Assembly (NCBI GenBank): GCA_964188305.1
Contig: OZ076892.1
Origin: Podarcis bocagei
Lineage: Eukaryota
DNA length: 64,000 nucleotides
Direction: 5' to 3' (one strand)
Under the pieces are notes generated by a model. It was given only the letters and a program-made list of their open reading frames with translations, was not told the DNA's origin and did not search any database. Below, one piece after another: positions 37,201 to 58,200 of this stretch (the first letter of the stretch is position 1; every line of letters starts with the position of its first letter). Position numbers and translations under genes: made by a program.

Positions 37201-40200
37201 GCATGCCGGCAAGTCTCCGCCAGCAGCGGCAACGCTGCCGCTGCTGGGGGAGAGATCTGCGAGGCCTGGGCGCGCTGCGCGCAGGCTTCGGCATGCCGGC
37301 AAGTCTCCGCCAGCAGCGGCAACGCTGCCGCTGCTGGGGGAGAGATCTGCGAGGCCTGGGCGCGCTGCGCGCAGGCTTCGGCATGCCGGCAAGTCTCCGC
37401 CAGCAGCGGCAACGCTGCCGCTGCTGGGGGAGAGATCTGCGAAGCCTGGGCATGCCGGCAAGTCTCCGCCAGCAGCGGCAACGCTGCCGCTGCTGGGGGA
37501 GAGATCTGCGAGGCCTGGGCGCGCTGCGCGCAGGCTTCGGCATGCCGGCAAGTCTCCGCCAGCAGCGGCAACGCTGCCGCTGCTGGGGGAGAGATCTGCG
37601 AGGCCTGGGCGCCCTGCTGCCCCACCTGGCCCCGCCGCCCCACTTCGGAAAGGTGTTCCGAAGTGGGGCGCGGGGGCGGGGACACCTGGCCCCGCTGCCC
37701 CACTTCAGAAAGCTGTTCCGAAGTGGGGCGGGGGGGCAGGGACACCTGGCCCCGCCGCCCCACTTTGGAAAGGTGTTCCGAAGTGGGGCGCGGGGGCGGG
37801 GACACCTGGCCCCGCCGCCCCACTTCAGAAAGCTGTTCCGAAGTGGGGCGGGGGGGGCAGGGACACCTGGCCCCGCCGCCCCACTTTGGAAAGGTGTTCC
37901 GAAGTGGGGCGCGGGGGCGGGGACACCTGGCCCCGCCGCCCCACTTCAGAAAGCTGTTCCGAAGTGGGGCGGGGGGGCAGGGACACCTTCTGAAGGCGGG
38001 CAGGGGGCGAAAGTCTTTGTCCCCCCTGCCTGCCTTCCCAGGGGCTTTTAAATCGCCCCGGACAGCGGAGAAGTCCTCCGCTGTCCGGAGCGATTTTAAA
38101 ATGCCGCCCGCCAGCATTTTAAGATCGCCCCGCACAGCGGAGAAGTCCTCCGCTGTCCCAGGGTTTTTTAAAATGCTGGGGGTGGGAAGAAAAGCCCTTG
38201 TCCCCCCCCCCCAGCCTTCAGAAGAGGTCCGGGGACAGACTGTCCCCGGACCTGGCCTGAAGGTGGTTTCCCTAGGAACGCATTAATTGATTTTCAATGC
38301 ATTCCTATGGGAAACCGTGCATCGCAAGACGAAAAACCCGCAAGACGAAGAGAATTGCGGAACGAATTAATTTCGTCTTGCGAGGCACCACTGTATAATG
38401 TTAATGAAATATATAACTTAACAGGGAAGCAGCGTTTGAAGCCCAACCCAGACCATAATGAGCCTGAAAGAGAAGGAGAGCCTCAGCCCGGCCCACGTGC
38501 AAAGCGACATCCTTCAAGACAGCTGGTCTAAAGGAAGAGGCAGGTAGGATGGACAAGGCTCAGACTGACCCTCAGCCTCTTTCAGCTCCTCCTCGGTGGG
38601 CCAGGTCTGCTCTCCATCCATGGGGTCAGGGGTCACTTCTGACTGCAGAGACTCTTGCTTGCTGGCATCAGCCTTGCTGAGCACCTTCACGTCTTCCTCC
38701 ATCTCCTCTTCTCTCCTGACAAGGTCATCCTAGAAACCGGGGAGAGAAGTTCAAGCATGGCCACCTGGGGGCAAAGGAGATGCTTTCTCCCCCACCCCCA
38801 CAAGCATTTGCTGCCTCCTCCTACCTTCCAGTTCCTGCCCCCCCCCCTACCAGCCAGGCAAAAGAACCTACCTGGTCCCCCATGCTCCTTGGGTTTATTT
38901 TTGCAGTTCTGGAGTTTAGAGCAAAGGGCTCTGGGGAGGCATCCACCTGACTCATCTGGAAGTCCCCGTGTCCCACAATATGCACCAAGCTGTTCACGTT
39001 CAGGCTCCGTCCCCTGACGTAGCCAGACACCTTCAGGGTCCCCACCAAGGCGCTGTCTGTGCTGGGCACGAAAGTGGCGGCAGTGGCCAGCAGGTGAGCC
39101 CGGCGGTCTCGGAAGGCCAGGTGCCGCTGCTTCTGGCTGGCCAGGTGCTGCAGCAGCAGGGCGGACTCCTGCTCTGTGTCGAGGGGGAAGAGCCTGTCTT
39201 CAGGGAACCTCTTCTCGATGGCTTTGTTCAGCTTCTTGCGACAGTCAATCTGCTTCTTTAGCGGTTGGTCAGAAAGACCTTGAACAGCAAGGCCTGCAGG
39301 TGACAAACGGGAGAGAAGCATCAACGGCTGGGTAGGCTTTAATGTCTGCTTACAGGCAGCTGTGAAGCTCAGGGGACCCCCCAAGGCAGCGTGGACCAAA
39401 TCCTCTAGATGCCAGCAAGGTATCCCTGAGATGAAGAGTCTCAGGTACCTTCATCTCAGGGTTGGGGGTTCAAGCCCCACATTCAGCAAAAAGTTTCCTG
39501 CATTGCAGGGGATTGGACCTGATAATCCTTGGGGTCCTTTCCAACTCTACAATTCTACAAACATAAGCAGCCTTGCAGCACTGACTGGAAGCCCACTGCC
39601 CATCCCTTCCATAAGTTGGTATAAGTTCAACAACACAGGGTGAGGCATAGTGGATCAGATCGAAAATTTGTCTCATCCGCCATCCCATTTCCAATTCAGG
39701 CCTGCCAAATGTCTCTTGATAAACAGGCACGACAGCCCTGCCCTGTTTGTGTACAATATCTGTGGCTTGGGGGGAGACTGTTAATTAACATGGTTGCTCA
39801 ATTTAGCTCTCACAGGCAGCAGCTGTGAAAGATCTGTCCCTCTTTGTGAATTGGTTTAATCCCTTTTAATATGAGACCTGATGGGCAGCTCTCTCTGGCC
39901 TCTGCCACCAGCCACAGGATCAAGGGCCCCCTCCCCTGCCTCCCAGGAAGAACACGATGGCAAGGAGATCAGTCCGGCCCCATCCATCAGCCAAAGGAAC
40001 ATGAGCTGCAAGCTTACACCCGCCTTCCCAGCCAGAAATAACACTTGGCTCTGACTGTCATTTGCCCCAAGGGAGAGGAAAGAACCTTCTGGCCCCACCC
40101 TTTGGCCAAAGAGAAAAGAGCCACAATCCACTGTTCAGACAAGAACATCAGCAAGGGAGGATCAGCATTGCCTAAACTGAATGTAAATGCTTGTAACTTA

Positions 40201-42378
40201 GCACTTCATTCTGACCTTGAAGGACTGTTTCCTGTCCCTTTTCCTGCCACTCCCTAAGTTTACATGTTGCATTTTTAGTTTATATGCCTGTTGGCATAGC
40301 CTGCCTGCCTGCCTCTAACTTGAGCCGCTTTGTCTGTAAATCAGGATAAAAAGAACAGTAAATCCCCCTGTGTCTTAACTGGAGGTTACCTGGCTCCCTC
40401 ACACAGTCTATAATTCAGATGGTCTTCCTAGTTATGCAGTTTGGTCTCCCCACTTCAAACCCTGGCATCCAAACACTGTTCTGCTAGTAGGGATTCGGTA
40501 AAGGAAGAGCCCCCTCCTGCTAGCACAGCAGCTTTTGACACTGTTCTCACCATAGCTGGGGAGGCCCTGTGCAAAGATGCAGGAAAGGCAGTAGTCTCCA
40601 GCGGCATCCCAGCCCTCGTGAGGATCCAGCACAAAAAGGAGGGTGTCTGCAACCTTGGCCAGGTCCAGCACAGCATGGAGGTTCCCTGGGTGATAAGAAA
40701 GGCGCAGGTGAAGGTGGAGCCTGGCGTGTTGCAACAACAGTGTCTCAGTAGGCCAAGGTGCCCCTACCTGTGTCAGCCACCACAAAGCGCCACCGGAGTC
40801 TGGATTGGTGGCACAGCAGGCCAAAACCTGGTGGCCCCATCTTGGTTTGGCACACGGTAGAAGCTGCACTGCTCTGAAACAGGCTCAAGGCTCTTGGGAT
40901 AGCGACGCCAGCATGCAGCGGGACTACCACCACCAAGTGGGGTGGCCCATCCTTGCGACCCAAGTTCCGCTTTTCTTCCAACACCTGTGACCAAGAGAAA
41001 GCAAACATAGGCCCTTTCATGGAGGAGAGGACTATTGATGGCCACTAAGCACAACGACTATGCTCTGCCGTCAGAGGCAGCAATGCTGCTGAACGCCAGC
41101 TGCTGGAAACTGCAGGAGAGGAGAGGACACTTTTGTTTGAATCCTGCTTGCAGGTTTCCCATAGGCATCTGGAATAGATGGCCTCCTTTGGCCTGATCCA
41201 GCAGATGCCCTTCTTATGTTTTTCTCCCTCCCCTGTAGAAGCAGGAAGAGGCTTGCCCTCCACCCCACCAGCTTCTCACTGACTCACCATCTCCCTGCAC
41301 TGCCGGCGGAGCTGCCAGGCCCGATGCTTGCGGTCCAATTTGGCCAAATTGCGGTGCCGCTGCTGGCTGAGTGTCTTAGCAGGGACCCGGCCTAAGGAAA
41401 GGGCGGAGAGAGAAGAGAAAAAGCTCTCAATGCGTACGGTGCTACGCTATACATAACAGAATTCAGAGGAAGACATGGAGTTAGGGGAACTGTTTAAATA
41501 CTGCTCTTGAGCATATGCACCCACGCTGCTGAGCCAAGCTTATCCTTATGACTCATTGCCCACCAATCATTTGATTTGGTCTATTTATTTATTTATTTAA
41601 TCAAATTGATATATCGCTTGATTGAATAAAACCTCAAAGCAGTTTACAATATGAATAAAGCGAGAATTTTTTTCTGTAAAAACAATCAAAACGTTCCAAA
41701 AACAATTTAAAAAAGCTATAAACTAAAAACACACCAGCGTTCTAGATAACTGGGTATTTAAGCAAAAATGTTTTTAGCAGGTGCTGAAAAGAGTGCAGTG
41801 AAGGCGCCTGCCCGGTATCAATAGGCGGGGAGTTCCAAAGCTCAGGCGCTGCCACAGGGGAAGATCAATTTCTTACAGCTGCAGAAAGAAGCGCTATGTG
41901 GCACCTGTAATCCTGCCAATTCCGCTGATCGGAGTGGTTTCAAGAGGGCGTACATGTGGTAAAAGGGGGTCTCGCCGCTAAAGTTCTCTGGCACAGCCAT
42001 CGGCAGCATCCAGGCTCTGCCTGTCTCGGAAGAGCCCCCCCCCCCCGAGGGACCAGCTGAAGCAGGAATAAGCAAACTCGGCCCTTTAGATGTTTTGGGA
42101 CTACAACTCCCATCATCCCTAGCTAACAGGACCAGTGGTGAGGGATGGTGGGAATTGTAGTCTCGAATCATCTGGCGGGCCGAGTTTGCCTATGCCTGAG
42201 CTGAAGGATGCCATCGACTTCACGCAGGACAGGACTGCGTATACATGTACAGACGGGCCTCCTCACCGCCCTGCTTCTTCGCGCTGCTCCCGCTGTGCCT
42301 CCCGCTCTTGTGCGGTTTGTTCTGCTGCTTCAGGGCCCCGGCCCGGTGGGCCCCGCCGCCTCCGCTCTTCCTCGCCAT
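25278..42378 (-). CDS. TSR1: Pre-rRNA-processing protein TSR1 homolog, 15 coding exons, 809 aa
   Basis: Exons (high to low): 42378-42267, 41391-41288, 40984-40768, 40685-40551, 39293-38872, 38729-38570, 35652-35486, 34585-34389, 34117-33958, 29676-29566, 28802-28670, 27577-27461, 26519-26379, 25653-25579, 25456-25278 (TAG). They sum to 2430 nt with consistent phases. Motifs: [63 protein letters not shown]. Confidence 0.96.
28860..29500 (-). pseudogene. SNORD91: Degenerate SNORD91-family C/D snoRNA in TSR1 intron 10, apparently interrupted by a CR1 fragment
   Basis: Minus-strand AATGTCTGAACCTG-T-CTAA (29479-29461) has 14-nt complementarity to 28S rRNA CAGGUUCAGACAUU followed by a D'-like box. 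The C-box position reads CCGACGG (29497-29491). A putative 3' half lies at 28907-28860. Human TSR1 hosts SNORD91A/B. Confidence 0.6.
28908..29458 (-). mobile_element. 5'-truncated CR1 LINE fragment
   Basis: Squamate CR1 3'-end motif (GCTGGACCAGATGGGCC...GGCCTGATCC...TTCTTA) and ORF2 C-terminal remnants (GGGCAACCAAAATGATCAAGGG). Confidence 0.75.
30334..31749. mobile_element. Non-autonomous hAT (Charlie-like) element with CpG-rich interior
   Basis: TIR CAGTGTTTCCCAACC / GGTTGGGAAACACTG; perfect 8-bp TSD CTCTAAGG. Confidence 0.9.
31928..32259. mobile_element. hAT-type MITE (copy 2, same family, internally shorter)
   Basis: Same TIRs as 6238-6705; 8-bp TSD AACTAGCC. Confidence 0.9.
36360..37610. 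repeat. GC-rich minisatellite of 90-bp and 69-bp units (15 units plus a partial one)
   Basis: Unit order [15 protein letters not shown]. Each unit has the hairpin CCAGCAGCGGCA-ACGC-TGCCGCTGCTGG. Confidence 0.95.
37620..37988. repeat. 60/61-bp palindromic minisatellite, about 6 copies
   Basis: GACACCTGGCCCCGCCGCCCCACTTCGGAA-AGGTG-TTCCGAAGTGGGGCG..., with alternating AGGTG/AGCTG variants. Confidence 0.93.
41020..41220 (+). mobile_element. CR1 LINE 3' fragment
   Basis: ATGGAGGAGAGGACTATTGATGGC...GGCCTGATCCAGCAG...TTCTTATGTT. Confidence 0.65.
42063..42198. mobile_element. Short palindromic hAT MITE in TSR1 intron 1 (related copies about 43827-43950 and 60056-60191)
   Basis: Long inverted arms; 8-bp TSD AGCTGAAG. 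Confidence 0.85.
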
Positions 42379-43250
42379 GGCCACGCGCTCCCTTCGCCTG
42401 GGCGCCAGGCAGGAAGTGACGTGTCTACGCTTCCGCTAACACAAACCAAGACCCGCCCCCGGGCCGAGAATGGCCGCTCTCTGCTCCTGACCTCCTCCGG
42501 GGCTGTGGGCCGCTCTAGCCTTCCTCTCGAAGGGTCCCTCCGCTTTGCCAGTCGTACGGCTGCGAAAGGCTCCGCGCAGGCGCGTTGTGTTGTTGTGGGG
42601 GCCAGCCGGGATTATGGCGTGGGCCGTTGCGGCGCATGCGCTGTGCGTCGGCCGGCCGCCGTGGCTATAATGGCGGCGGCCGTTGCTGCCGCTGGTCGCT
42701 AAGTCGCCGGCGGCCGCGGCCTTGGCGTGGGCCCCATGAGGAGGAGGCAGGCGAGCGGCCATGGGCTTGCTGAGCAGCAGGGCGTGGCGGGGGCGGCCGG
42801 CGGCGGCCGCCGCTGCCCCGCACGGCGAAGGTCCGGCGGGGGCTGTGGCGGCGGGCCTGAGGGGCGTCGGAGGCCGAGGCGGGGCTGCCGTCGCCGCCAA
42901 GAGGAAGCGGGGCGACCTGGGCGCGTACCCGAGCGACACGGACAGCGACGACGAGAGCGAGAGGGAGGAGCGGCTGCTCAACACCCCGAGGAGGTACTTC
43001 GCCTCAGGGCAGCGGCGCGTTCGCCTGCGGGACTCGCTGCCTCAGGATGCCGCCTTGGAGGACCCGCTTGAGGCCTCCAGCGTCCGAGGCAGCCAGCCTC
43101 CGAGGGCAAGGTGCTGCGGAACAAGCGGGGGCCGCTGCGGGGAACTGCGCTGGGCTGCAGGTGAAGGGGGGGGGTCATCGGCCTTCTGCAGCCCCCTCCG
43201 GGGAACCGAGGCAGCCGCTTCATACCGAGTCAGGCCGATGCGATTCCTGC
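42250..43250. promoter_or_regulatory. CpG island / bidirectional promoter shared by TSR1 and GMCL1
   Basis: Very GC- and CpG-rich; start codons about 380 bp apart and divergent. ETS-CRE-like GGAAGTGACGT at ~42412, NRF1-like GCGCAGGCGC (42574) and GCGCATGCGC (42632), YY1-like AATGGCGGC (~42669). Confidence 0.85.
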
Positions 43251-46200
43251 GTTGCAGGAGGTTGGACTAGATGATCCTCGGGACCTTGCCAACTCCTACC
43301 ATGCTGTGATCGGCCCATCTTGCTCAGTGCTTTCTACAGGGCCAGTGGTTCCCAAACATTAAACCACAGAGACGAGGACTTGCATATCAGAAGGTCGGCG
43401 GTTCGAATCCCCACAAAGGGGTGAGCTACCGTTGCTCGTCCCTGCTCCTGCCAGCCTAACAGTTCAAAAGCAGGTCAAGTGCAAGTAGATAAACAGGTAC
43501 CACTCCAGCTGGAAGGTAAACGGCGTTTCCGTGCGCTGCTCTGGTTCGCCAGAAGGGGCTTAGTCATGCTGACCACATGAAGCTGTACGCCGGCTCCCTC
43601 GGCCAATATAGCAAAATGAGCGCCGCAACCCCAGAGTCAGCCACGACTGGACCTAATGGTCAGGGGTCCCTTTACCTTACCACCATAAACTCGTCCCCGT
43701 GCCCCCCATTATTCAGAATATTGCATGCCTCACTGAGGAAGATAACGCCACAAAATTTAAAATAGTAACAACTGATTGCATATTAATTCAAAACCCAGTT
43801 AAAACTGCTTAGTTTAATTAATTCGGCCTTTCTCAAAGTTGGATCCCCAGGTGTTGGAATACAACTCCCATCACACCTCACTACCAGGGCCAGTGATCGG
43901 GGTGATGGGATTTGTAGTCCAACAACATCTGGGGAGCCAAGTTTGAGAGAGGATGAATTAATTCAACAAAATGTGACCCAGTGGCTTCAGCTTGTCAAAA
44001 TCTGTTAGTCATTTACTCTACCAACAGCCACCTGCCACGCCGCTTAGTGCCTCCCACTAGGAATTTCTCTGCCCTGTTACGGTAAAATCCGGGTGCGTGA
44101 GGGCACAGCCACCCAGCTCGTCGGACAAAGTCCGCGGGTCCTAGCGGAGAAGAAAGGAGCTCAGCCGGACACAGGAGCAAAGTACGAAGATCCGAGTTTA
44201 TTGCGCAACAGGTTCAAAATGGCATTGAACCCCGAGTATGGGGTGACATAGACTTTTAAAAGTTCCCTCCATAACCCAGAATACAGTGCAGGAAACGTCA
44301 TGAATACATTATGGGAAGGTCATGTTTCGTGGATTACATCATGAATACATTTCACACGTCATGAATAGATTATGGAAGGGGTGGGATCACATTCATTAAC
44401 ATTTCAGATGAGGGAGGGGGAATATGCGGAGGGAGAAATATGCATAGATAAACATTTATCAAGTACCGGTGGTGGCAAGACAATGGGTCAGAGATATGCA
44501 TCGTCTGCCACTTAATATTGCCTAGAGGAAGGGTTTGGCGAAACGATCTGACAGGATTAGGAAGTTCCTGCGTACGTGACCCGCCGCTTTGGGGATTATG
44601 GAAGTAGGAACAACATCATGGAGTCCAGGGAGAGCTGAGTTGAATGACACCAAGAGTGAGGAAATCGGAGCTACGGTCGATTTTATATCAATTTTTAGAG
44701 ATTTCAAAGGTTTCCAGGCTATTCCGTACTGTAGAGTGAAAGGTAGAACAGAATGGATACATTTTGGCAGGCGGAAGCAGAATGGATACATTGTAACTAG
44801 ATTTTGACAGGTTTACGAGGTCCCTGGTTTCGGATCCATTGTTCTCACAGCGGGGGGCCGTCCGCAGCTTGTTAGGAGTGAAATGAGGCGTGCAGGAGCT
44901 CCTGGAGCTAGCTCTTTGCAGGACGAATGCATGGCTGTGATTGGCTAAAGCGCGGCCATAGGAATAAGTGGAGAAGAGAAACACTCGGTCTACTCGTTCT
45001 AAGTATGGGGCGCAGATAGGCATAGGAAAGATAGAGAATATATTTATAGATATTCGAGCTTATTTCGCTCGGGAAAGGGTCTGGGAAAAGTGTGGTGCTT
45101 GTGCAACGGTGAAGGGGTTTTGAGGGTGGGTGTGCGGTGGCACCCTCGAGGTCATCGCCTCGGTCAGTCAGGAAGAGGGGGAAAAAGGCACCCCCCCCCT
45201 CCTCAGTCCGTATCAGTCCCCCATTCGGAGATAGATTTGCATTAAAGTTCTGTAAGAACTTGCAAATCCTTTCTCCGCACCATTGGAGCACTAAATCTCG
45301 GTGATCTCATATTCCCCTTCTCCCAAATGTCTCATCTGTACGTAGTCTGGGAAGGTGGGAGCATGTCGGGAGCGGGAATAAGCTCGAAGAGGAAAGGAGC
45401 TAGTGGAGGCAGAATGACGGAGGAGAGAGCAGCAAGGGGTAATACAATGCATAGTACAACACAGGATGGAGACACAAAGGAAAACAGTTAAAATGGTAAA
45501 CAACACGACTTTCAATAGTTGCCTGAGCCATCCCAGCTTGGGCAACCATCCCCATAAGTCCACATCGGAGAGTCCCTCATGCTGGATGTCGTGAAGCTTC
45601 CCTGCTAGCTCATGAATGTTATTTAAATGCCCAGTTATGTTTAAGGTCTGATCAGTCACATATGTACAGCACTCTGTGCCTATTAATGCGCAGGTGCCTC
45701 CTTGACTGGACAAGAGGAAGTCTGTCGCGATTCTCGTTTGCAGGCTCAATTGTCTTACCTCGGATAGTTCCGACATTAGGGAGTCTGTGATCTGGGTTGC
45801 CTCTTGCATGAATTTGAGGAGGATATCGGTGAGTCGGAGAATATCCACGTGGTTTGAACCGGCACCGTAGGCGGGGAAAAGCGCTCGGCCCACGGTCTCT
45901 CCATTCGCAGCGGCGTCTGACAGGTCTGACAGCTCTTTCTGTTCCCTCTTATTTCTTTGTCTCCCGGGGGGTAGGTGTGGAAGTATCCTAATTCCGGGGA
46001 CAATGTAGCCGACGAAGCAGGATCCGGACATGTGTGGGCTCACCCATGTGTACGCGCGATGTCCGCATACCCAGAATAAGCCGCTGAGGTAAGACTCCAT
46101 TCTGCCTGAAGCAAAGGTTTGCAGCAGCATGGAGTCCGTGACTTGGGGCTTCCAGTCGGAGGGGTGTCCCACGACAGCGGCCCAGGCAGTGGTGAGGTTA

Positions 46201-49200
46201 GGGAAAGTCCGGGGACCCCTAGCGTTGATGATGGTGACTAGTCCAGTCGGTAGGATTTCTAGAGTGGAGGTACACGTACTGGACCCAATGAAGGTTCCTT
46301 CTCCGGAGAAGCGGCGGCAAAGGGGTCCCTTGGTAGGGCCTGTAAGGTAGAGGTACTGATGCGTCAAGTTGAGTGCGGTTAAATTCCAGGACGTAACGTT
46401 TCCAGAGCGAAATTGTTCCAAAGTCACTGGTACTGGGACAAGTGGGAGGCTCTGCTGGAGGTGACTGGGTGCGTGGGCACAGATCCAGCAGTCTGGGTAG
46501 GGTGCTTCTTTCGCCACCTGGCTGAGAAGTTTAATGTAGGAATTTTGCTCCCAGGAAGAAAGGAGGTCTTCTCCCGGGAGCGCAGAGTCTGTGCCGAATT
46601 GCCTAGGTGCTGTACCGACTGGATGGAGTGGGTCGGTGGTATTTAATAGTTGCCGGTCTCTGGCGATTCCGCCGCACCTCAGGGGTCCAGCGTGATCCCA
46701 GGAGGGGGGGCGTGAAGGGTGTATGGGATGGTGCCAACCCTCTAGATATTCGGCCCCTTTCCAATCACGGGTGTACCCAAGGTTCCATAAACAGCAGAAC
46801 CGCCGCAGGCAGAGACCTTGGAGTTGGGGTTTCCGGGTCTCTGGGGTGGAGAGGAGACACTGGAACCCGAAAATCAAGTTTCCAGAGGGGCGACTGGAGT
46901 CCGTGTAAGCGTGGGAGGCCCCTCCTATCTCGACTTCGGTCCAGTTCGGGCTTTGCGTGATTTCCCCGCCTTTGTATAGGAGATAAGTCCCGTTATGGCA
47001 AGTCAGGCGGTAGGAAGAATGGTCCAGAGTGAGGGCAGCAGACCCAATGCGGCGTAGGTCCTTGTTTCGGATGAAAAGTTCCCAGTATTCGTCATTGGTG
47101 AGTCGGGGTACTAGAGAGTGGCGCAGTAGGGTCCGAGACTCAGGAAGGCAGAAATCAAAGTCCCCCATTCGGTCAGGGTTAGATCTTCCCCCTGTTTCGA
47201 CCTCGTGATAATCCAAGAAGTGATAGTCAGTTTGTAGTCCTGTACAATGGTTTGATGAAGCAGACGTGGTCCTGAAGAAGGTGGCGAGGAGAAGGGCGGT
47301 GCAGGCAAAACCCATGGCAGGTGCGCGTGTAGGGAGAGAGGTAGTTCGGAAGTTGTAAACTGTCGACGGAACTGTCAGATGAGGTGGGATGGAGCGGTGA
47401 CGTAGGGAGCTGTCAGACGGAGCTGTCAGATAAGGCAAGATGGAGCGGTGACATAGAGAGCTGTCAAACGAAGCTGTCAGATGAGGCAGGATGGAGCGGT
47501 GACGTAGAGAGCTGTCAAACGAAGCTGTCAGATGAGGCAGGATGGAGCGGTGACGTAGAGAGCTGTCAAACGAAGCTGTCAGATGAGGCAGGATGGAGCG
47601 GTGACGTAGAGAGCTGTCAAATGGAGCTGTCAGATGAACTGTCAAGCGCGTTTGAGACGTAATTTGAGAGCGTCGGTGTCAGGGACGATCTCGGATGTCC
47701 AGTTGGATGTCGTGGCGACTGGTCCGGTCTGTTGAGCCCGATCTTGGCCCCGATCTGCTGGCCCGGTCTGTTGAGCCCGATCTTGGCCCCGATCTGCTGG
47801 TCCGGTCTGTTCTTCGTCGTCGTCGATGTACGAGGTCGGCGGTGTGGGAGGGGTCGAGAAAGTGAAGTCCTCGCCGGGGTTTTCCTCCGTCTGTTGAGGG
47901 GGTGGCGCGGGCTTACACCTGGTGTGATGGATCCACGAATTCTTCTCCCCTACTTTTACAGCGGTTGGTGATGTCAAGAGGATTTGGTAGGGGCCCTCCC
48001 AGGCGGGTTGAAGGGGTTCCTTTTGATAAACTTTGATGAGGATCCAGTCGCCGGGATCGAAGGAGTGGGCTTGCACGTCGATGGGCAGGTTCTGTCCTTC
48101 GATGGCCGCGTACTGGTGGAGGCGCTGTAGCTGCGTCTGGAGCTGAATGACATAGTTAGTGAGTTCTGCTTCTCCTAGTTCGAGCTCCGAAAGGGGAAAT
48201 AGAGTATTATAGACGGGAGGGGGTCTCCCAAATAGGAGTTCGTACGGAGACAGTCTCAAGGGTCCGGTAGGGGCACTCCGTATATTGTGGAGAACTAATG
48301 GGAGAGCATTTGTCCACTTTAGTCCAGTTAGCCTACAGAGTTTGCCAAGTTGTATTTTAATTTCTTGGTTCATGCGCTCTACTTGGCCCGAAGATTGTGG
48401 GTGATAGGGTGTATGAAGATCCCATTTTATTTGTAGAGCCTTTGCGACTAATTGTACTATTTGAGCCGTGAAATGGGTTCCCCTGTCGCTGTCTAGTCGG
48501 CGGGGAACCCCAAATCGGGGTATGATGTCCTGCAGAAGGGCTCTGGCTACTACAGAGGCAGTTGGCTTCCTACAGGGAAATCCTTCTACCCAGGAAGAGA
48601 GTTTGTCTATTATGATGAGGGCATGTTTGAAGCCTTGGCAGGGTGGCAGATCGATAAAATCTAGTTGCAGGCTTTCGAAAGGGACGAATGCCCATAGTCT
48701 GGCCCCTGGGGGTGCTCTGGGTTGTCGTTTGGGGTTGTAGGAACTACAGGTAATACAGTTCTTTGATGCTGTTGTGGCCGCGACTGCCAAGCCTGGTGCG
48801 TACCAGGATCTCTTAACATGTTCTATCAGTCTCCCCTTTCCCCAATGCGTTTGTTGATGGAGAACCCTCACCAATTTTGAAACCCATGTTTTTGGAAGGA
48901 CGGGCCTGCCATCAGGGAGGATCCAAATATCATTTTGTTGGACTGCACCCACTGAGCGCCAGAGAGTCTTTTCTTCCTCGGGGGCTTCTTTGTAAATCTG
49001 TGTGGGATCTATATTGAGTGGGATCTGTAGGGCTTGAAACTCTGATTCTTGGTTGGGGGGGCGGAGTGCGGCTGCTTGAGCCGCGTTATCGGCTCGTCTG
49101 TTGCCTCTTGAAACTGGGTCCCTGCCTCGGGTATGTGCTTTACAGTGAACGACTGCGATTGCATCGGGCATGTGGATGGCGGTCAGTAGCCTCTCCACTA

Positions 49201-52200
49201 GGGCAGCGTGTGAAATTTTAGAGCCTGCAGCTGTTAGGAAGCCCCTTTGTAGCCAGATTTGACCAGTGGTGTGGACTAATCCGAAACAATATTTGCTATC
49301 AGTGTAGATGGTGGCCCGCTTGCCCTCACTGAGTTCGCAGGCGCGTATGAGCGCTATCAATTCTGCAGCTTGGGCGCTATATTGTGGGTTGATCGGGTTG
49401 GATTCTAAGACTTCAAAGTCCGTAACCACAGCATACCCCGTCTTCCTCTCCCCTTCTACTACCCTGGAGCTGCCGTCTGTGTAGAGTACAAGGTCCGGGT
49501 TTTCCAAGGGTAGGTGATCGAGGTCTTCCCTGGGTTTCTCGGCTTGACGGACTATTGTGGCACAGTCGTGGTGTGGGGTCCCATCGTCGGGGAGGGGTAG
49601 AAGGGTGGCTGGGTTAAGGGAGTTGACTCTTTTTATGGTGACGTTTGATGGGGTTAGCAAGAGGGCTTCATACTTGTTTAGTCGGGAATTTGAAAAGTGA
49701 TGACAGCCTCGTAGAGTTAGGAGGGTGGAGACGGAGTGGGGAACATGAACAATGATTTCATGCCCCAAGACTGTTTCTTGAGCTTTTTCGAGGAGGGTTG
49801 CCGCGGCGGCTATAGCTCGCAGGCAGCTCACTGCCCCCTTTGCTGTATTGTCCAATTGTAGGCTGTAATATGCCACAGGTCTTTCTTTATCCCGGAAAGG
49901 TTGAGTCAGTACCCCTGAGGCTACCCCCATTTGCTCATGGATAAACAGGTTGAAGGGGATTCTGTAGTCGGGTAAGCCTAGCGCAGGGGCTGACCTTAGT
50001 TCCCGTTTCAATCGTTCAAATGATTTGTATGCTTCTTCTTCCCAAACTAAGGTGTCGGGGTGGTCTTGGCGGGTCATGGCAGACAGCGGTTTCGTTATTT
50101 CGCTGTAGCCTGCGATCCAGGCTCTACAGAAGCCTGCCATTCCTAGGAATCCTCGTAGTTGTCGCTTGGTTTTGGGAAGGGGGATTTTTGTAACGGCTTC
50201 TATTCTATCTGTTGCTAAGCTTCGGGTGCCCACCCCTAGGATGTGGCCAAGGTACTTTACTTCCTGCTTACAATATTGTAGCTTTTTTGGTGACACTTTG
50301 TGTCCCTTCCTGGCTAGTTCGGCAAGGAGGTGCTTGGTGTCTGTTTTGCACGCTTCCTCGCTGGTAGAACAAAGGAGCAGGTCATCTACATAAAGAAGGA
50401 GAGCAGAGCTGGCTGGGAGGTGTATATCTTGCAAATCTTGGTGTAGGATTGCTGAGAAGATTGCGGGTGACTCCACGTACCCCTGGGGCAACCTTGTCCA
50501 GGTTAATTGACTGGGTCCCCATGTGAAGGCGAAGAGGAATTGGCTAGCTGGATCTAATGGTATACTAAAGAAGGCGGAGCATAGATCTGCAGCGGTATAC
50601 CACTTGGTTTCTGCGGGTATGGCATTTAGGAGGGAGTTCGGGTTGCCCACTACTGGGTGACGGGGTATTACAAATTGATTTACTAATCTTAAATCCTGGA
50701 CGAAGCGATATCGGACTGGGGCTCCCTCGGCGGACGGTTTCTTTACTGGTAATACAGGTGTATTGCATGGGGATGCGCAAGGAACCAGGATCCCCTTTTC
50801 GAGAAAGTCTTCTATCATCGGGGTTAACCCCTCAATGGCCTCCTTGGGTAAGGGGTATTGTTTAGTACACGGGAAGGGTAGGTCAGTCCTATAGGTAATT
50901 TTTACCGGGACGGCCGATAGGAGGAGGCCTACTGAGGTTGACTCGGTGCCCCATAGAGAGGGGGGTAGATTGTCCTCCAGCTCGGGAGGGAGTTCGGGAA
51001 ACTGCCTATCTGTCTTCACTTCCTCCATCATTCCTTGAAATTCAGGGATTGAGTCTTCAGGCATATATAGGTAGATACCTTCTCGGGAGCATTTAATTGT
51101 TGCGTTTAGTTTGCAGAGTAAGTCTCTTCCGAGGAGATTCACCGGACTACTGGTTAAGAGGAAGGTATGCTCGGCGAGTAGAGGTCCGAGGGTAACTTTA
51201 GTTGGACGTGATAGGGGACATGTGCGGGGTATCCCATCCAGACCCATAACCTTTTTTGTTTCTGAACCTGGTTCCAGGTGACTGTCCGTTAAAGTGGAGT
51301 ATGTGGCCCCGGTGTCCAGTAGGCATTGATAAGGATGGCCATCTATCTCTATGGTGCAAAATGGGTCTTCGGAGGATAGCGTTAGGACTGGACAGATAGT
51401 TTGAGTTTGGTCGGGACCCCCTTCTGATTGTCAATACGTTTGTTGGTCGTCTGGAGGGGGTTGGTTAGGGGGGTGTAGAGGTGGAGCAGTGGCGTTTGCC
51501 CAAGGGTGGGTGGACGGAGTTATCGCCGGCATTTGTGTTCTCAGTCCCTGCGGGGGTGTTTGCGTTTTAGTAGGGACATTCGGGAGCGGTGGGTTGTAAG
51601 AGGCTGGGGCGGCTCGAGGGTTGTAGGGCACAGGAGGTTGGTTCTGGTACCCGTAGGTCGTGTTGGAATGTACTTCACGAGTCACATTGTTGAGGTAGGG
51701 ACAGAATCTTTTAATGTGTCCTTCCTCTTGGCAGTAAAAACACCCTCCTGCGGCTGGTCCCCATGGTCTATGAGGGTTCGGTGGTCCTCCTCCCCGGGCT
51801 CCCTTTCCTCGACTGAAACCCCTGCCCCTGCTGTAGTTTGGTTCCATGCTAAGGGCCAGGATCTGTTCCGTTTCGGGCTTGGGGTCTCTCTTCTTCCTCT
51901 CGTCTCGGGAGTTAAAGACGGATTTTGCGATGGAGAGGATTTCGCTAATACTCTTTCCATCATACCCTATTTGCAGGTTTAGGGCTTTTCTAATATCAGG
52001 GCAGGCTTGATCCTTGAAGAAGCCCTTCACAATGACCTCGTGTTGAGGATTATCTGGGTCGATCCCTCCCCAAGTCTTGATGGCTGATACTAGCCTGGTG
52101 TAATAGTCGGATGGGTGTTCATTGGCCCCTTGCAACACAGTTTGGACTTTAGTCCAGTTGACTGTACGCTGGCCAGCGGCCTTAATGCCGTCCAATATCG

Positions 52201-55200
52201 CCTTCTTGAATAAATCTAAGCACCATGTTCCGTCTGTGGTATTATAGTCCCAGGTTGGTTCGGTGCGTAGGCATTGGGCTGTGAGTGCCTCAACACCTCG
52301 TGGGCGTCCTGCCTGGTAGTTCGGGAGTTCGATTGCTTCCCCGGCCTTGGCTAAAATATCTGCCTTTTCGGCTTCGTTGAAAAGGGCATTTAGGAGAACA
52401 TGAACGTCTGGCCAAGTCGGCTTGTGGGTCGAAAAAATAGCGCTGACCTGACGGTGGCACTTATCCGGGTCATCTCTTAAAGATGGCATTTGATTCGACC
52501 AGGTTACCAGGTCTGCCGTATAAAATGGTTGGTGAGTGTACACCATCCGAGGAGGTCCATCCGGCTGGAGGGGTGGGATTGGCAGGGCCCTTAAGGGCAT
52601 CTGGACGGCTGCGGATTCCGTCTGTTTAGACGTCCCCGGGGTCTCTTTAAGTTTTTCTAAGAGGCTGGGGTCTCTCAAGGTGGCCTCTAGTATTTCTTTA
52701 GCTCGCTGATTCAGAGCTACAGGGTTTGAGCCTTCTGGGGTAGCGTTCTGAATCTCCTTAGCTCGCTGCCTGGTTATTCGTGGGCTCGTGCCCCCCCGTG
52801 CCCCTGGTTCCCGTGTGTCTTCATCGCTATCTGATTGACCCCCTGGGGCGGGTGGAATTGGTTGCCTATAGTAGAAGGGGATGAGCGCTTGTTCTATGGA
52901 GTCTTCTTCTCCAGGGTATCCCTCGTATGGGGGGGGCAAGGACGACCTTCCATGACTTAAGACGGGCAGCTGATAGGTCGTTGTTCCTTTGGTGCCTTGG
53001 AGCAGCCCTTTGACCGTCTCAAAGGTGGCCAGGTATTCCAATTGACGGGGCTTTTCCTCTAACAAATAATTTTTAAGATGTTGTAGACGGTCTTCGTTAA
53101 AGGAGCCACCCTTTGGCCAGCGTAACTCTGGTTTTGCAGAGGCAGTTCCGGCGGGCCAAGTGTCTCTACAGAGATCTTCTAACTTCTGTCTCGACAGCAA
53201 CTTATGCCCGGGAATAGATTTCCAATAGGAGATGACGAATTCGAGGGGGGAGTCGGGGTCCCTCTGGGATTCAGATGGCTTCCTTGAAGCCTTCCTCCCG
53301 GAGCGAGCCCGTTCATGCTTAGAGGCCTGGGTACCCATTTTATTCACGCGTGTCTAGACAGAAAGAGGGGAGAGAGGGGTCGGTAAGGATTGGTATACCT
53401 AGGGAATTGGTATGCCTAACGCTGGGGTTTATAGTAAAGCGGGGTCTCTAGCTGCTTGGCAACTTCCTTAGAGAAAGTTTTGAGAGCTCTATCTACCTGA
53501 TTCTTATGTTCCCTTTACAATTCTCTATTTCCTATAACCTGGGGTTTCCTTCCACTCTGCCGGTCCCGCCCAATTCCTCATGGGCTATCCCTCCTGGCAA
53601 CCTCCTACCTATCGTCACACTCTCAGGAAAAGGGGCCCTACTGGACGCTCGCGTAGTGCGATGCCAGATCGGGTGATCCCTGGATAGGTTCCGAACGGAA
53701 AATCCCCCTTGCTTTCGGAAGCGGACTCACGCACGATACACGTGTTACGTGGCCCGACCGGTGCGGCTGGGATTGATTGATAGGAAAGCAAGACCCCTTC
53801 CTGCCCCCTCCGTAAGGGCGCTCGGGAAGTTCGGAAAAGAACTCCAACCCCTTGCTTTCGACTGAGATGCCCGTTGCAGAGAGTCGGCTGTCTTTCCAAG
53901 CCGGGTCTCTCCGTCTTACTTTCGGACTCTCAATCGGTGCGGCTGGCTGGAGAGTTTGAGGAGAAAGAGATAGAGCTCAGAACCCCCCTTTCGGGTCGAG
54001 CGGCAGTCCACGGTCTCTCTCACCACTTGGACCAAGATACAGGCGAGAAGGAGCGATAGAGAGGAGGGCAGAGAATTCAGTTGCCAGGAGATTCCACCCC
54101 CTTCCCACCAGTGCACTGGATTTCCTTTTCCTATACTCACGTGTCTTCTACGATGATCCCGGGATCGGTGAGCAAGCCGGCTGGATCCCTCTTTGCTCCC
54201 CGACTGAACTCTGGGACTTCAGATTACCGCCCGGAAGATGGCCGGAGGTCCAAAGGATCTTCCCGGGCAAAATGGCCCGGTGCCGGCTGAAGATTTCGGG
54301 GCCCCCGGTCAGCAACACGGGAGAACGCTTCAGGTCCCTGCTTGGGCGCCAAATGTTACGGTAAAATCCGGGTGCGTGAGGGCACAGCCACCCAGCTCGT
54401 CGGACAAAGTCCGCGGGTCCTAGCGGAGAAGAAAGGAGCTCAGCCGGACACAGGAGCAAAGTACGAAGATCCGAGTTTATTGCGCAACAGGTTCAAAATG
54501 GCATTGAACCCCGAGTATGGGGTGACATAGACTTTTAAAAGTTCCCTCCATAACCCAGAATACAGTGCAGGAAACGTCATGAATACATTATGGGAAGGTC
54601 ATGTTTCGTGGATTACATCATGAATACATTTCACACGTCATGAATAGATTATGGAAGGGGTGGGATCACATTCATTAACATTTCAGATGAGGGAGGGGGA
54701 ATATGCGGAGGGAGAAATATGCATAGATAAACATTTATCAAGTACCGGTGGTGGCAAGACAATGGGTCAGAGATATGCATCGTCTGCCACTTAATATTGC
54801 CTAGAGGAAGGGTTTGGCGAAACGATCTGACAGGATTAGGAAGTTCCTGCGTACGTGACCCGCCGCTTTGGGGATTATGGAAGTAGGAACAACATCATGG
54901 AGTCCAGGGAGAGCTGAGTTGAATGACACCAAGAGTGAGGAAATCGGAGCTACGGTCGATTTTATATCAATTTTTAGAGATTTCAAAGGTTTCCAGGCTA
55001 TTCCGTACTGTAGAGTGAAAGGTAGAACAGAATGGATACATTTTGGCAGGCGGAAGCAGAATGGATACATTGTAACTAGATTTTGACAGGTTTACGAGGT
55101 CCCTGGTTTCGGATCCATTGTTCTCACAGCGGGGGGCCGTCCGCAGCTTGTTAGGAGTGAAATGAGGCGTGCAGGAGCTCCTGGAGCTAGCTCTTTGCAG

Positions 55201-58200
55201 GACGAATGCATGGCTGTGATTGGCTAAAGCGCGGCCATAGGAATAAGTGGAGAAGAGAAACACTCGGTCTACTCGTTCTAAGTATGGGGCGCAGATAGGC
55301 ATAGGAAAGATAGAGAATATATTTATAGATATTCGAGCTTATTTCGCTCGGGAAAGGGTCTGGGAAAAGTGTGGTGCTTGTGCAACGGTGAAGGGGTTTT
55401 GAGGGTGGGTGTGCGGTGGCACCCTCGAGGTCATCGCCTCGGTCAGTCAGGAAGAGGGGGAAAAAGGCACCCCCCCCCTCCTCAGTCCGTATCAGCCCCC
55501 TCTGGGAAGCACTGGCCTACAGTGACTGAGAGGAGCATTCCAAGGTTTCAGACAGGGAGTCTCTCCCAAGCTGTACCTGGAGATCCCAGCAGGGATTGGA
55601 CCCAGGCCCTTCTTCAGGCAAAGCACATGCTTTACTTTTGAGCTACTGGCCTTCCCATTTTGCAGATTCAAGCACTATTGTAGCAGGAACAGAAGTTCCA
55701 ACAGAACGTGCACATGCCTGGCAACATCTTAAAAGTAGCTAAATGACATACATTCTTGGCGCCTTAGGTGAGCCTGTGTTTTAAAGCTAAACTAGATATG
55801 ATCCTCAGCAGCAGGATGAGGCTGGTAATGCAAAAAAATTATGTCCCTTATGAGAGCTTCCAGGCAGGTAAAGGAAATGGCATTGGCTGAGCCAGAATAT
55901 GCTCTGTAATATCCACTTTTTAAAGGCTTTTTTAGAAGGCTCATGATTGCTTTTAGAATTACTCCTGATTGCTTCAGCTCATAAAGAAGCATGATGTTGG
56001 GATAACTGTAGGCTTTCTTAAACAAAATGTAACTTGAAACCAACCTTGTAACCATTGACTTTGGTAAAAACCATGGAAAGTGGATCAAATTGGTTCAATG
56101 GGATGCTTGCAAGGAAGGTTCATCTGTCCAACAAGCTTTCAAAATGTTATGTTTAGTGTTACGTGCTGGAATTCAACACTTGTTTTTTCCCCTCCCCTTA
56201 ATCCAGGAAAAAATTAAAAAGCACTTCCAAGTATATATATCAGACTTTATTTCTAAACGGTGAAAACAGTGATATTAAGATTTGTGCTCTGGGAGAAGAA
56301 TGGAACTTGCACAAGATATACTTATGTCAGGTAAGAATAAAATATTTTTTTCCAGGCAGATCTTGGGCTCTAATTCTAAATACCTTTATTAGGGAGCAAG
56401 TCCCACTGAACTCCGTGGAACTTGTTTCTGAGTAAGCATGCAGGGGATAGTGCCGTTAGACACACTCTCCTTATCCCTTGCCTGCCGCTATGTCCAGAAT
56501 TCTCAAGAGCAGCAGTGAGGTGTACATTAATGGCTAACAAAGCATACTTTAGCTTAGCTTGAATAAATTAAACATAACATATTGTTTCCCTTGGAAAAGA
56601 TAAGGTTGTCAAAGGGAATATACTACTGTACAAATAGACTTTATTCTTTTGATCTCTCAGGTAAACTTCTGTGAGTGATAGCATCTCATAATGGGGTCAC
56701 CTCCTGCTGTGATGGAAAGTTCTAGTAGAGCAGTAATTTTCACTTCCTTGGATGGAAAACTAGCTATTTCTAGTTTTATATGAATTACATTTTAATGAAA
56801 AGGTATACTTACATGGTGTGTGTATGTGTGTGTTAATTTACCTACACCTAACTTTGTATGGATACGGCAATGTATGTATGTCTGTAGCATGAGACCACCC
56901 TTGTACATCTATTTGTATGTCTTGTATGTGGTTCCTTTTCCAGTACCCTTCTAAATTGCTGCCCATGGGAGTTTTTGTTCAAATTTCAGGCAGTATTCAA
57001 TATTATTGTAATTACTTCTTCCCCCTCTTGTTTTACAGTTGGTAGTTTAGGTTTGTTTGGATAAAACGATTCATAATCTTAGTTGTGTTTTCTCCAAACT
57101 TAGTTAAAACCAGTGTTTCATTACTCCTGAAACAGGAAGTTGTGACTTAATGGTGATGTACTAACCAGGAATGAAAGCCTTGTTTGATCCTGGTTTTTGT
57201 TCCTGAATCTATTTCAGAGATAATGGGAAACCATAGCTTGCTTTAACTAGGATCAAACACTAGAGTAGGTACATGGGGTGGTGGGTACTACATGGTCTGA
57301 ACACTCGTTTCTAGTGTCATAAACCATGGCACATAAAGTTGAGAGTGTTCAGACTGATACTTTAGAGATCAAACATGCTTGAAATAAAGGCTAATGAAGA
57401 ATTTGCTTGAAATTTATTAGGAATGGAAGAGATCTGCCATAATGCCTCCTGATATGGACATACAGCTTACTTTCTTTGTACCATATTAATTTGCATATAT
57501 TCTTACATTTTAAGCATTTGAATTAAATTCAGGGTCTTTTTTTGTAGTCTGGCTACTTTTCGAGTATGTTCAGCGGTTCTTGGAAGGAATCGGAAATGCA
57601 TACAATAGAATTGGAAATTCCTGATCAGAATATTGATGTAGAAGGTAAGCAAAGGATGATGTTCCTTTTTTACAGAAGACATGGGTACTTGTCAAGTCAG
57701 CTAAGATTTTTTATTATTATTATCAAAAGTTGTTTATTAAAACATTATTTGAATCACATTTACAGTTGGAAATTTGGGGAATGTGTTGGGAGAAGATTCT
57801 AGAGAACTCATTAGAAAATGGGTTTCTCCATTTGGGAGTAGTGTTAAAGAAAGTAGCCAGGCACCTTGGGACTTCTTTAAAACTTTTTATGTTGTCAGTG
57901 TGAAAAACACAAGATGAACTGACCCACTCCCACCAGAATTTTTATTACAAAAGAGCAGAGCATTTGAAAATCTGTTTTTTATTTGTTGATGTAGAAAACA
58001 GTTGTTTGCTAAAGTCTGCCTACTCTGTTCCAGTGACTTAAGAGTTACCCCTTAGTTTTAGGTTAGGTTGGCTATTATGGATCATTGGCGTAACGTAGGA
58101 TTTTATATTTGTCATGTTCCTGACCTGTCATAATAGCTGTTTCTGTTGAGCTGTTTGGCTTCTCAGCAGCTTTTCCCTGCTGCTTAATACTTCTTAATGC

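Follow-up and report, generated by a model that had tools for sequence, protein, structure and literature searches.

How a retrovirus in a lizard genome provides for both Gag and Gag-Pol is the question raised by a provirus in the 64,000-nt stretch of Podarcis bocagei contig OZ076892.1 (GCA_964188305.1) analysed here, which is referred to as the window and to which all coordinates refer. The provirus (44075..55494, minus strand, 11,420 bp, both boundaries exact) carries gag and pro-pol in one frame, parted by a single in-frame TGA at 51433-51431. The Gag : Gag-Pol ratio is essential for retroviruses, and in the available portions of the reviews retroviral readthrough is linked solely to type III signals or to UGA contexts that are left unexplained. 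The main new point is that the TGA belongs to a conserved type I signal, TGA-CAA-YYA, through which Gag-Pol is predicted from sequence to be made by stop-codon readthrough; an orphan domain of the envelope protein (Env) comes second.

On C1-C15, 64 loci of three families carry env; the junctions located there number 56, and 56/56 show the signal TGA-CAA-YYA. The pattern was matched 3-9 kb upstream on the same strand at 52 of these loci (by position only where the locus was unfetched), while four of the other 12 read TGA-CAA-TTA with different neighbouring bases and eight were without a protease start in 7.5 kb. Detection was independent of the motif definition for 33 of the 56 junctions, and in the first set 25 of 29 fetched internal loci held a junction, all 25 of which read TGA-CAA-YYA. 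A further 17 rows on C16-C20 and small contigs were excluded; five of them were read directly, three showing the motif and two no junction. A scan of the genome with the junction pattern returned 121 places, compared with 84 for the control, and a control family from the gammaretroviral side carried TAG-G at 30/30 loci. Since all four YYA codons occur (TCA, CTA, CCA and TTA, encoding Ser, Leu and Pro), the constraint acts on bases rather than on residues. Among the next 48 codons, an invariant third base was seen at only three (21 distinct sequences). Downstream folding gave z-scores of +0.7 to +1.3 in 4/4 close-family junctions, as computed by a program that ignores pseudoknots, and z was near or above 0 in 5/7 junctions overall.

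Type I signals have been defined as UAG-CAR-YYA and assigned to plant viruses and the insect Providence virus, with gamma- and epsilonretroviruses placed in type III (PMC3542737, as far as its accessible part extends). The accessible part of a second review (PMC13517186) lists animal viruses with types II and III only, and reports that CAR-YYA functions in mammalian systems, UGA included, without downstream structure. CAR-YYA in a retrovirus is absent from the available portions of both reviews and from the titles and abstracts of the literature searched, which was mostly open-access.

A different origin of Pol has also been considered, in which pol would be expressed by splicing, an internal promoter or reinitiation and TGA-CAA-YYA would be kept as a cleavage site or RNA element. 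The precedent is Candida Tca2, where the flanks of an in-frame gag UGA gave no readthrough in yeast (PMC2194720, in the part available), and the Gln at +1 could serve as a cleavage-site residue. However, a protein constraint leaves unexplained why the codon is CAA and never CAG, the A at +6 is held over Ser, Leu and Pro codons in families only 63-69% identical in Pol, the signal fits the tested consensus exactly, and gag and pol are in frame in 7/7 fully open close-family copies. This alternative is regarded as unlikely, and type I readthrough is preferred. The parts of the provirus are as follows.

44071..44074: left copy of the target site duplication (TSD), GCCC
44075..45215, minus strand: 3' long terminal repeat (LTR), 1141 bp; AATAAA at 44202 (offset taken from the 5' LTR copy)
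45216..45226, minus strand: short polypurine tract (PPT)
45291..47315, minus strand: env, 674 aa; signal peptide, CWIC at 276, RNKR cleavage site, CX6CC, membrane span
~20 residues past the RNKR cleavage, minus strand: hydrophobic stretch of env
46566..47252, minus strand: N-terminal domain of the surface subunit (SU), aa 22-250; cysteine-rich, predicted all-beta
47372..47637, minus strand: 51-bp tandem array, 5.2 copies; candidate tandem splice acceptors
47642..51430, minus strand: pro-pol, 1262 codons, in the gag frame
47719-47811, minus strand: 39-bp repeat in the integrase tail
51425..51433, minus strand: gag stop and candidate readthrough signal TGA-CAA-TCA (type I, CAR-YYA)
51434..53338, minus strand: gag, 635 aa from ATG; Gly2, PPPY, p30 capsid, one CCHC finger
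54135..54140, minus strand: candidate splice donor GTGAGT, at the same relative place in close-family copies
54334..54351, minus strand: primer-binding site (PBS) of tRNA-Lys(UUU) isodecoder type, unlike the closest siblings' site
54354..55494, minus strand: 5' LTR, 1141 bp; TGACGT repeats at 54640 and 54579, TTTTAAAA at 54540, AATAAA at 54481
55495..55498: right copy of the TSD, GCCC

The initial annotation, made from the sequence alone, had described two LTRs indistinguishable by eye, a 4-bp TSD, a PBS and a PPT, open gag, pro-pol and env, and intact DTG, YVDD, RNase H and HHCC/DDE motifs. Alignment confirms the first point, with 0/1141 differences between 44075-45215 and 54354-55494, and GCCC is present at both ends. 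The frames are open as described, with the refinement of the one in-frame TGA between gag and pro-pol; the PBS is of a tRNA-Lys(UUU) variant type, and the PPT is short, holds one T and is unchanged in six sibling 3' LTR loci. The motif check agrees, recovering DTGA, LPQG, YVDD, RNase H TDGS, integrase HHCC with D-D-E, and GPY, and Pfam domains were found for p30, protease, reverse transcriptase (RT), RNase H, integrase core, H2C2, the C-terminal domains and TLV_coat. The order LTR-PBS-gag-pro-pol-env-PPT-LTR with a TSD is that of a class I endogenous retrovirus (ERV), as are gag-pro-pol in a single frame with a stop, the GPY/F motif and the lack of a dUTPase, a marker set taken from the available part of PMC1224870. 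The CpG observed/expected ratio (o/e) is 0.70 in the provirus and 0.24-0.26 in host DNA, a further sign of youth. The U3 of the LTR appears to be long; its open reading frames (ORFs) of 111 and 89 aa have no Pfam family and were rejected as genes, being whole only in three LTRs at least 98% identical, of 18 tested. The leader holds one ATG. Among LTR loci L004-L030 the TSD is 4 bp in most and looks 5 bp in L010/L011, L012, L016 and L030.

Identical LTRs and open frames might also reflect an assembly consensus. Short-read polishing can homogenise repeats, four sibling LTR pairs show single-base gaps, and no listed contig spans the element. Against this, the two LTRs have 14-22 substitutions in common by which they can be told from their nearest siblings. 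Compared with five siblings, 95-246 internal sites are changed, and in the four examined for this most changes are synonymous; the PBS, too, is found in the provirus alone. Such differences would be erased by a majority consensus, and an artefact is considered highly improbable.

The insertion lies within a host gene, of which two exons flank it.

42761..42993, plus strand: coding part of GMCL1 exon 1, within a CpG island; distance to the provirus 1081 bp
56207..56330, plus strand: GMCL1 exon 2, 712 bp from the provirus

RNA reads support a plus-strand splice from 56328 to 57546 (10 reads), four read ends are loose at 56205 with their remaining letters mapping from 42969 onward, and the host exon matches bird, turtle and mammalian GMCL1 without a difference (100%); the provirus is therefore placed antisense in GMCL1 intron 1, which it lengthens from ~1.8 to 13.2 kb. 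Exons with AARP2CN and RIBIOP_C domains lie on the minus strand at 26050-42380 of the window, in a gene that is presumably TSR1; it and GMCL1 are arranged head to head, with the CpG island (~42300-43000) between them. The GC-rich tandem arrays at 36360-37988, whose units measure 69, 90 and 60 bases and which have long stop-free frames on both strands, are probably an intronic minisatellite. A preference of the lineage for CpG islands was considered and found no support: among six young sites, an island (o/e 0.83) flanks the GMCL1 site only, and the site of the solo LTR is intermediate.

The site was surveyed on 45216-58000 in four of 24 listed runs; the 16 whose share was at most 0.35 were set aside. 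A contig of sample X1, which is possibly the source sample and hence not independent, runs through the right flank and 29 bases into the LTR with no difference. In sample X3, which bears the same species label as X1 and comes from another sample and study, and in sample X4 of another species, the flank match of a contig starts exactly at 55495, and beyond that point the contig has 152 other letters; continued into the left flank, this length would extend to 43919, at a repeat (43828-43961). The site is inferred to be empty in a second conspecific sample and in a related species. In both X3 and X4, close relatives of the internal region occur at ~2-6x flank depth, which is not a copy number. 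The identity of the LTRs alone sets the age below ~0.26-1.3 million years (95%, if between 5e-9 and 1e-9 substitutions are assumed per site and year). In addition, a solo LTR identical over all 1141 bases, with its own TSD, is found on another chromosome (G000:C15:12686659). The insertion is recent and probably polymorphic: the youth proposed at the outset is borne out by the LTR pair and the solo LTR, and the suggested polymorphism is raised to probable by the apparently empty site.

Related copies were recovered by searches whose counts are floors, as 40 of 960 LTR candidates, 17 of 764 internal candidates and 66 of 2120 env candidates were scored. Three families share the Env type, the close family (Pol 87-99% identical where whole) and two others at ~69% and ~63% Pol identity. 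In the close family, none of the three frames is interrupted in 7/16 internal regions examined, where gag and pol are also in frame, and the other 9/16 are truncated or have stops or frameshifts. In five sibling LTR pairs, the two LTRs are separated by no more than 0-2 substitutions and 0-1 gaps. The count of full-length copies and solo LTRs called for by the initial annotation thus shows siblings at independent sites, alongside the identical solo LTR. The rarity implied there for an intact element was overstated: besides the 7/16 open regions, there are at least 39 dispersed copies of an unrelated gamma-side family, with open Pol 99-100% identical. A young intact ERV is ordinary, not rare, in this genome. 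The gamma-side family (loci L083-L120, TAG-G junction) represents a larger recent burst than that of the provirus family. ERV proteins labelled Podarcis have matches of 99-100% in this genome. The loci L006/L008 and L007/L009 are independent insertions with different TSDs; their 5' LTRs are identical, and their 3' LTRs are likewise alike, each shorter by one base; the shared shortening may be real or a systematic sequencing effect. At G000:C2:1377776-1395561, two proviral internal regions stand in tandem, apparently with a common middle LTR, and in the family 2 provirus L059 (G000:C5:101288900-101298800) the integrase is interrupted by a ~4 kb LTR element in opposite orientation, copia-like by eye.

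The ratio of nonsynonymous to synonymous substitution rates (dN/dS) against the four closest copies was 0.050-0.098 in 9/9 comparisons (pol 0.050-0.070, env 0.066-0.098, gag 0.091 in one pair). Of 22 comparisons overall, 20 could be computed, and all of these gave 0.029-0.111. Among the 66 env matches scored, 61 had no internal stop. Identity varies gene by gene between subfamilies, and one copy is 96% identical internally with an LTR of 87%, which suggests recombination between subfamilies. Purifying selection that includes env, together with mosaic subfamilies and a switched primer site, favours spread of the family by reinfection. Amplification inside germ cells, by retrotransposition or complementation and without infection, would fit the many dispersed copies in one genome and a location in intron 1 of a gene whose name refers to germ cells. 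Elements that amplify within the cell usually lose env, however, and here it is maintained by purifying selection at the level seen for pol, so that intracellular amplification is assigned a low probability and reinfection is retained. The proposal of a virus still infecting or amplifying in the germ line stands in part: past reinfection is supported indirectly, by an env dN/dS of 0.07-0.10, mosaics and the primer switch, and replication competence is conjectural. A co-opted env is expected at a single fixed locus with the rest of the provirus decayed; here env is multi-copy, the other frames are open and the site is apparently empty in two other samples, unlike a syncytin-like gene.

The primer switch concerns the PBS. 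Among the internal regions of 15 siblings, a single Lys site, which we take to be Lys-CUU, is shared by 11; in three the site is exactly complementary to the tRNA-Lys(UUU) gene found most often, and in one no site was found. The provirus has a third type, occurring once in the assembly and one mismatch from two Lys(UUU) isodecoder genes. The five bases past the PBS match tRNA positions 58-54 except at 58, and the closest siblings are one base shorter there. As the PBS is copied from the primer, and copying normally halts at m1A58 (PMC11251516, available part), the match beyond 58 points with moderate strength to priming by another tRNA, which may have been read past the m1A58 stop.

Between the pol stop and the env ATG, 13/13 AG dinucleotides lie inside YGACAG, and 6-31 TGACAG copies precede env at the 23 other family 1 and 2 loci tested, while in family 3 the array is absent (3/3) and an ordinary pyrimidine tract stands before env. 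The simplest reading is that the TGACAG array provides tandem weak splice acceptors for env. One ATG at ~47455 (minus strand) lies inside the 51-bp array, out of the env frame, with none in the four closest siblings. The integrase-tail repeat at 47719-47811 comprises 2-7 CAGACCGG copies in families 1 and 2 and is absent in family 3.

The Env is of the main gamma type, with CXXC in SU and CX6CC in the transmembrane subunit (TM); it departs from the EnvR supergroup, defined by CX7-9CC. It has ~250 residues before CXXC, which include the N-terminal SU domain of ~230 residues (aa 22-250). From its position, this domain is the probable receptor-binding domain (RBD). In a word search, 16/16 Env matches were lacertid-labelled or unnamed, and among the best 150 of 1415 profile matches the domain was not covered outside lacertid or unnamed rows: a tortoise row starts at 226, and the best non-lacertid match, from the amphisbaenian Rhineura, begins at position 254, without the domain. 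No Pfam family was found for the domain. The domain-only model is all-beta (predicted local distance difference test, pLDDT, 61), and its best match is PRYSPRY (Z 5.3, root mean square deviation 3.5, 103 residues aligned), a result bearing on the RBD-C/RBD-R question. This model had no match at E 0.001 in PDB or BFVD and no Z of at least 8 among 48,161 chains, which demonstrates neither novelty nor difference; the full-length Env model (pLDDT 42) also had no match at E 0.001, and an atlas search of the domain gave a best score of 0.79, a lead only. A special link between the TM and filovirus GP2 was rejected, as the likeness equals that with syncytin-1 and is read as general gamma-type TM likeness. 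At env aa 525-542, in the immunosuppressive-domain region, the close family reads LQTRIATDFLL and the other families are QN-R-A/C-LD-like.

The placement of the lineage was addressed by a quick RT tree of 118 rows and a careful tree of 57 of those, both midpoint-rooted. The lacertid clade (lacertid-labelled, own-genome and close unnamed rows) has support of 98/92, is sister to a turtle element and groups towards RT sequences from fish, amphibians, turtles and opossum. Grouping with rows like murine leukaemia virus (MLV) was rejected by the approximately unbiased test (p-AU 2.95e-06), for a group chosen after the quick tree; the RT phylogeny proposed in the initial annotation thus places the clade outside the gammaretroviruses. 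The closest solved RT is that of MLV (E 7e-153), every other RT entry being at E 1e-41 or weaker, in keeping with a class I ERV, whose RT is nearest to the gamma/epsilon group. The label "epsilon-like" rests on host range for clade Mu (PMC6001957, accessible part). No relative was found in the viral contig collection. The lineage had been thought undescribed, which agrees with the literature searched, where no description was found; Dfam and Repbase lay outside the search and may list the families under a repeat name.

Taken together, the provirus is best explained, with good though not complete confidence, as a recent, polymorphic member of a lineage of lacertid class I retroviruses outside the gammaretroviruses, on the epsilon-like side. 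Its unspliced RNA would be translated into Gag, and a few percent of ribosomes would pass the TGA by means of CAA-YYA to yield Gag-Pro-Pol, without a pseudoknot of the MLV type. Env would be made from RNA in which the 54140 donor is spliced to an acceptor that lies within the TGACAG array or shortly ahead of it, and its orphan N-terminal SU domain would bind the receptor atop an ordinary gamma-type SU core and TM. Spread in the germ line would have proceeded by Env-dependent reinfection, with recombination between subfamilies, and a recent replication round in the ancestry of the provirus would have been primed by a tRNA-Lys(UUU) isodecoder, not by the siblings' primer.

Several observations weigh against this explanation. 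Two of the seven junctions folded (one in family 2, one in family 3) are structured downstream, with z of -3.5 and -1.9, so that structure independence is not general. The empty site rests on contig coordinates, the 152 letters themselves not being displayed; no exact tRNA gene for the PBS of the provirus is present in the assembly; the Env domain model is weak, with a pLDDT of 61; and the RT tree is without any named epsilonretrovirus, a search of five clusters for such references having found none. Readthrough, protein, particle and infection are, for this provirus, predictions from its letters. Finally, RNA depth on the provirus is at most 2.75 per direction and zero over env (one run, 12 in 100 read, 150 reads), and 44% of mapped RNA reads diverge from its sequence, so that no RNA read can be assigned to this copy; nor did an env splice junction appear, in a region with zero depth.

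The last point bears on whether the lineage is now a silent fossil, having replicated within the last few hundred thousand years and since stopped. This must be taken seriously, at somewhat short of an even chance: the LTR-based age bound permits it, and close relatives in a second species (share 0.59) suggest that the family may predate the species split. It is countered by the site apparently empty in a conspecific, by the identical solo LTR, a second insertion of the same LTR type, and by the small differences within the five sibling LTR pairs. As it touches present activity alone, the anatomy and the mechanism proposed are unaffected. It is suggested, more tentatively still, that the group may be still entering germ lines, that these may be the first vertebrate retroviruses with a structure-free CAR-YYA signal, and that the RBD may be other than RBD-C and RBD-R.

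A six-base signal maintained across three lizard families provides a natural series in which convergence is testable, and the lineage offers a reptile case of recent germ-line invasion combined with an orphan Env domain. If the polymorphism of the GMCL1 insertion is true, its effect on the host gene could be measured between carriers and non-carriers.

The nearest known relatives belong to the same clade and are automatic gene models only: the Podarcis muralis proteins A0A670IS81 (Pol) and A0A670JBW8 (Env), 92% identical, Zootoca vivipara Pol, 82-86% identical, and proteins of P. lilfordi, also near. The EnvR group 1 Env of Podarcis (Hotzel, 10.1101/2024.03.17.585361, available part) is likewise of gamma type and from the same host genus; it has CX9CC and no N-terminal domain, in contrast to the CX6CC and N-terminal domain found here, although that survey may list the provirus Env. 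Like gammaretroviruses such as Moloney and Rauscher MLV, the provirus has p30, one CCHC nucleocapsid finger, GPY, an in-frame gag-pol stop and a CXXC/CX6CC Env. Unlike MLV, it has a Pol of only ~44% identity, a separate RT clade, a Lys primer and 1141-bp LTRs, and where MLV uses UAG-G with a pseudoknot (PMC3542737, available part) it has TGA-CAA-YYA. Epsilonretroviruses are characterised by UAG-R and two zinc fingers (PMC3542737 and PMC1224870, in their accessible parts) and by accessory ORFs; compared with them and with epsilon-like retroviruses, the provirus has one zinc finger, no conserved U3 accessory ORF and a leader with a single ATG. SSSV (salmon swim bladder sarcoma virus), the zebrafish endogenous retrovirus (ZFERV) and the cane toad ERV also end gag with UGA, but the contexts of walleye dermal sarcoma virus (WDSV), SSSV, ZFERV and the toad element are UAG-GAU, UGA-AGA, UGA-CGA and UGA-AGU, none of which is CAR-YYA (PMC13517186, available part). 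The closest likeness in stop-CAA-YYA is to the type I viruses, tobacco mosaic virus (TMV), benyviruses, pomoviruses and Providence virus, from which the provirus differs in having UGA instead of UAG and in being a vertebrate retrovirus. The plant retroelement SIRE1 reportedly uses the same CAR-YYA motif, and three family 2 copies read CAA-TGA-CAA-TTA, the TMV context with TGA in place of TAG.

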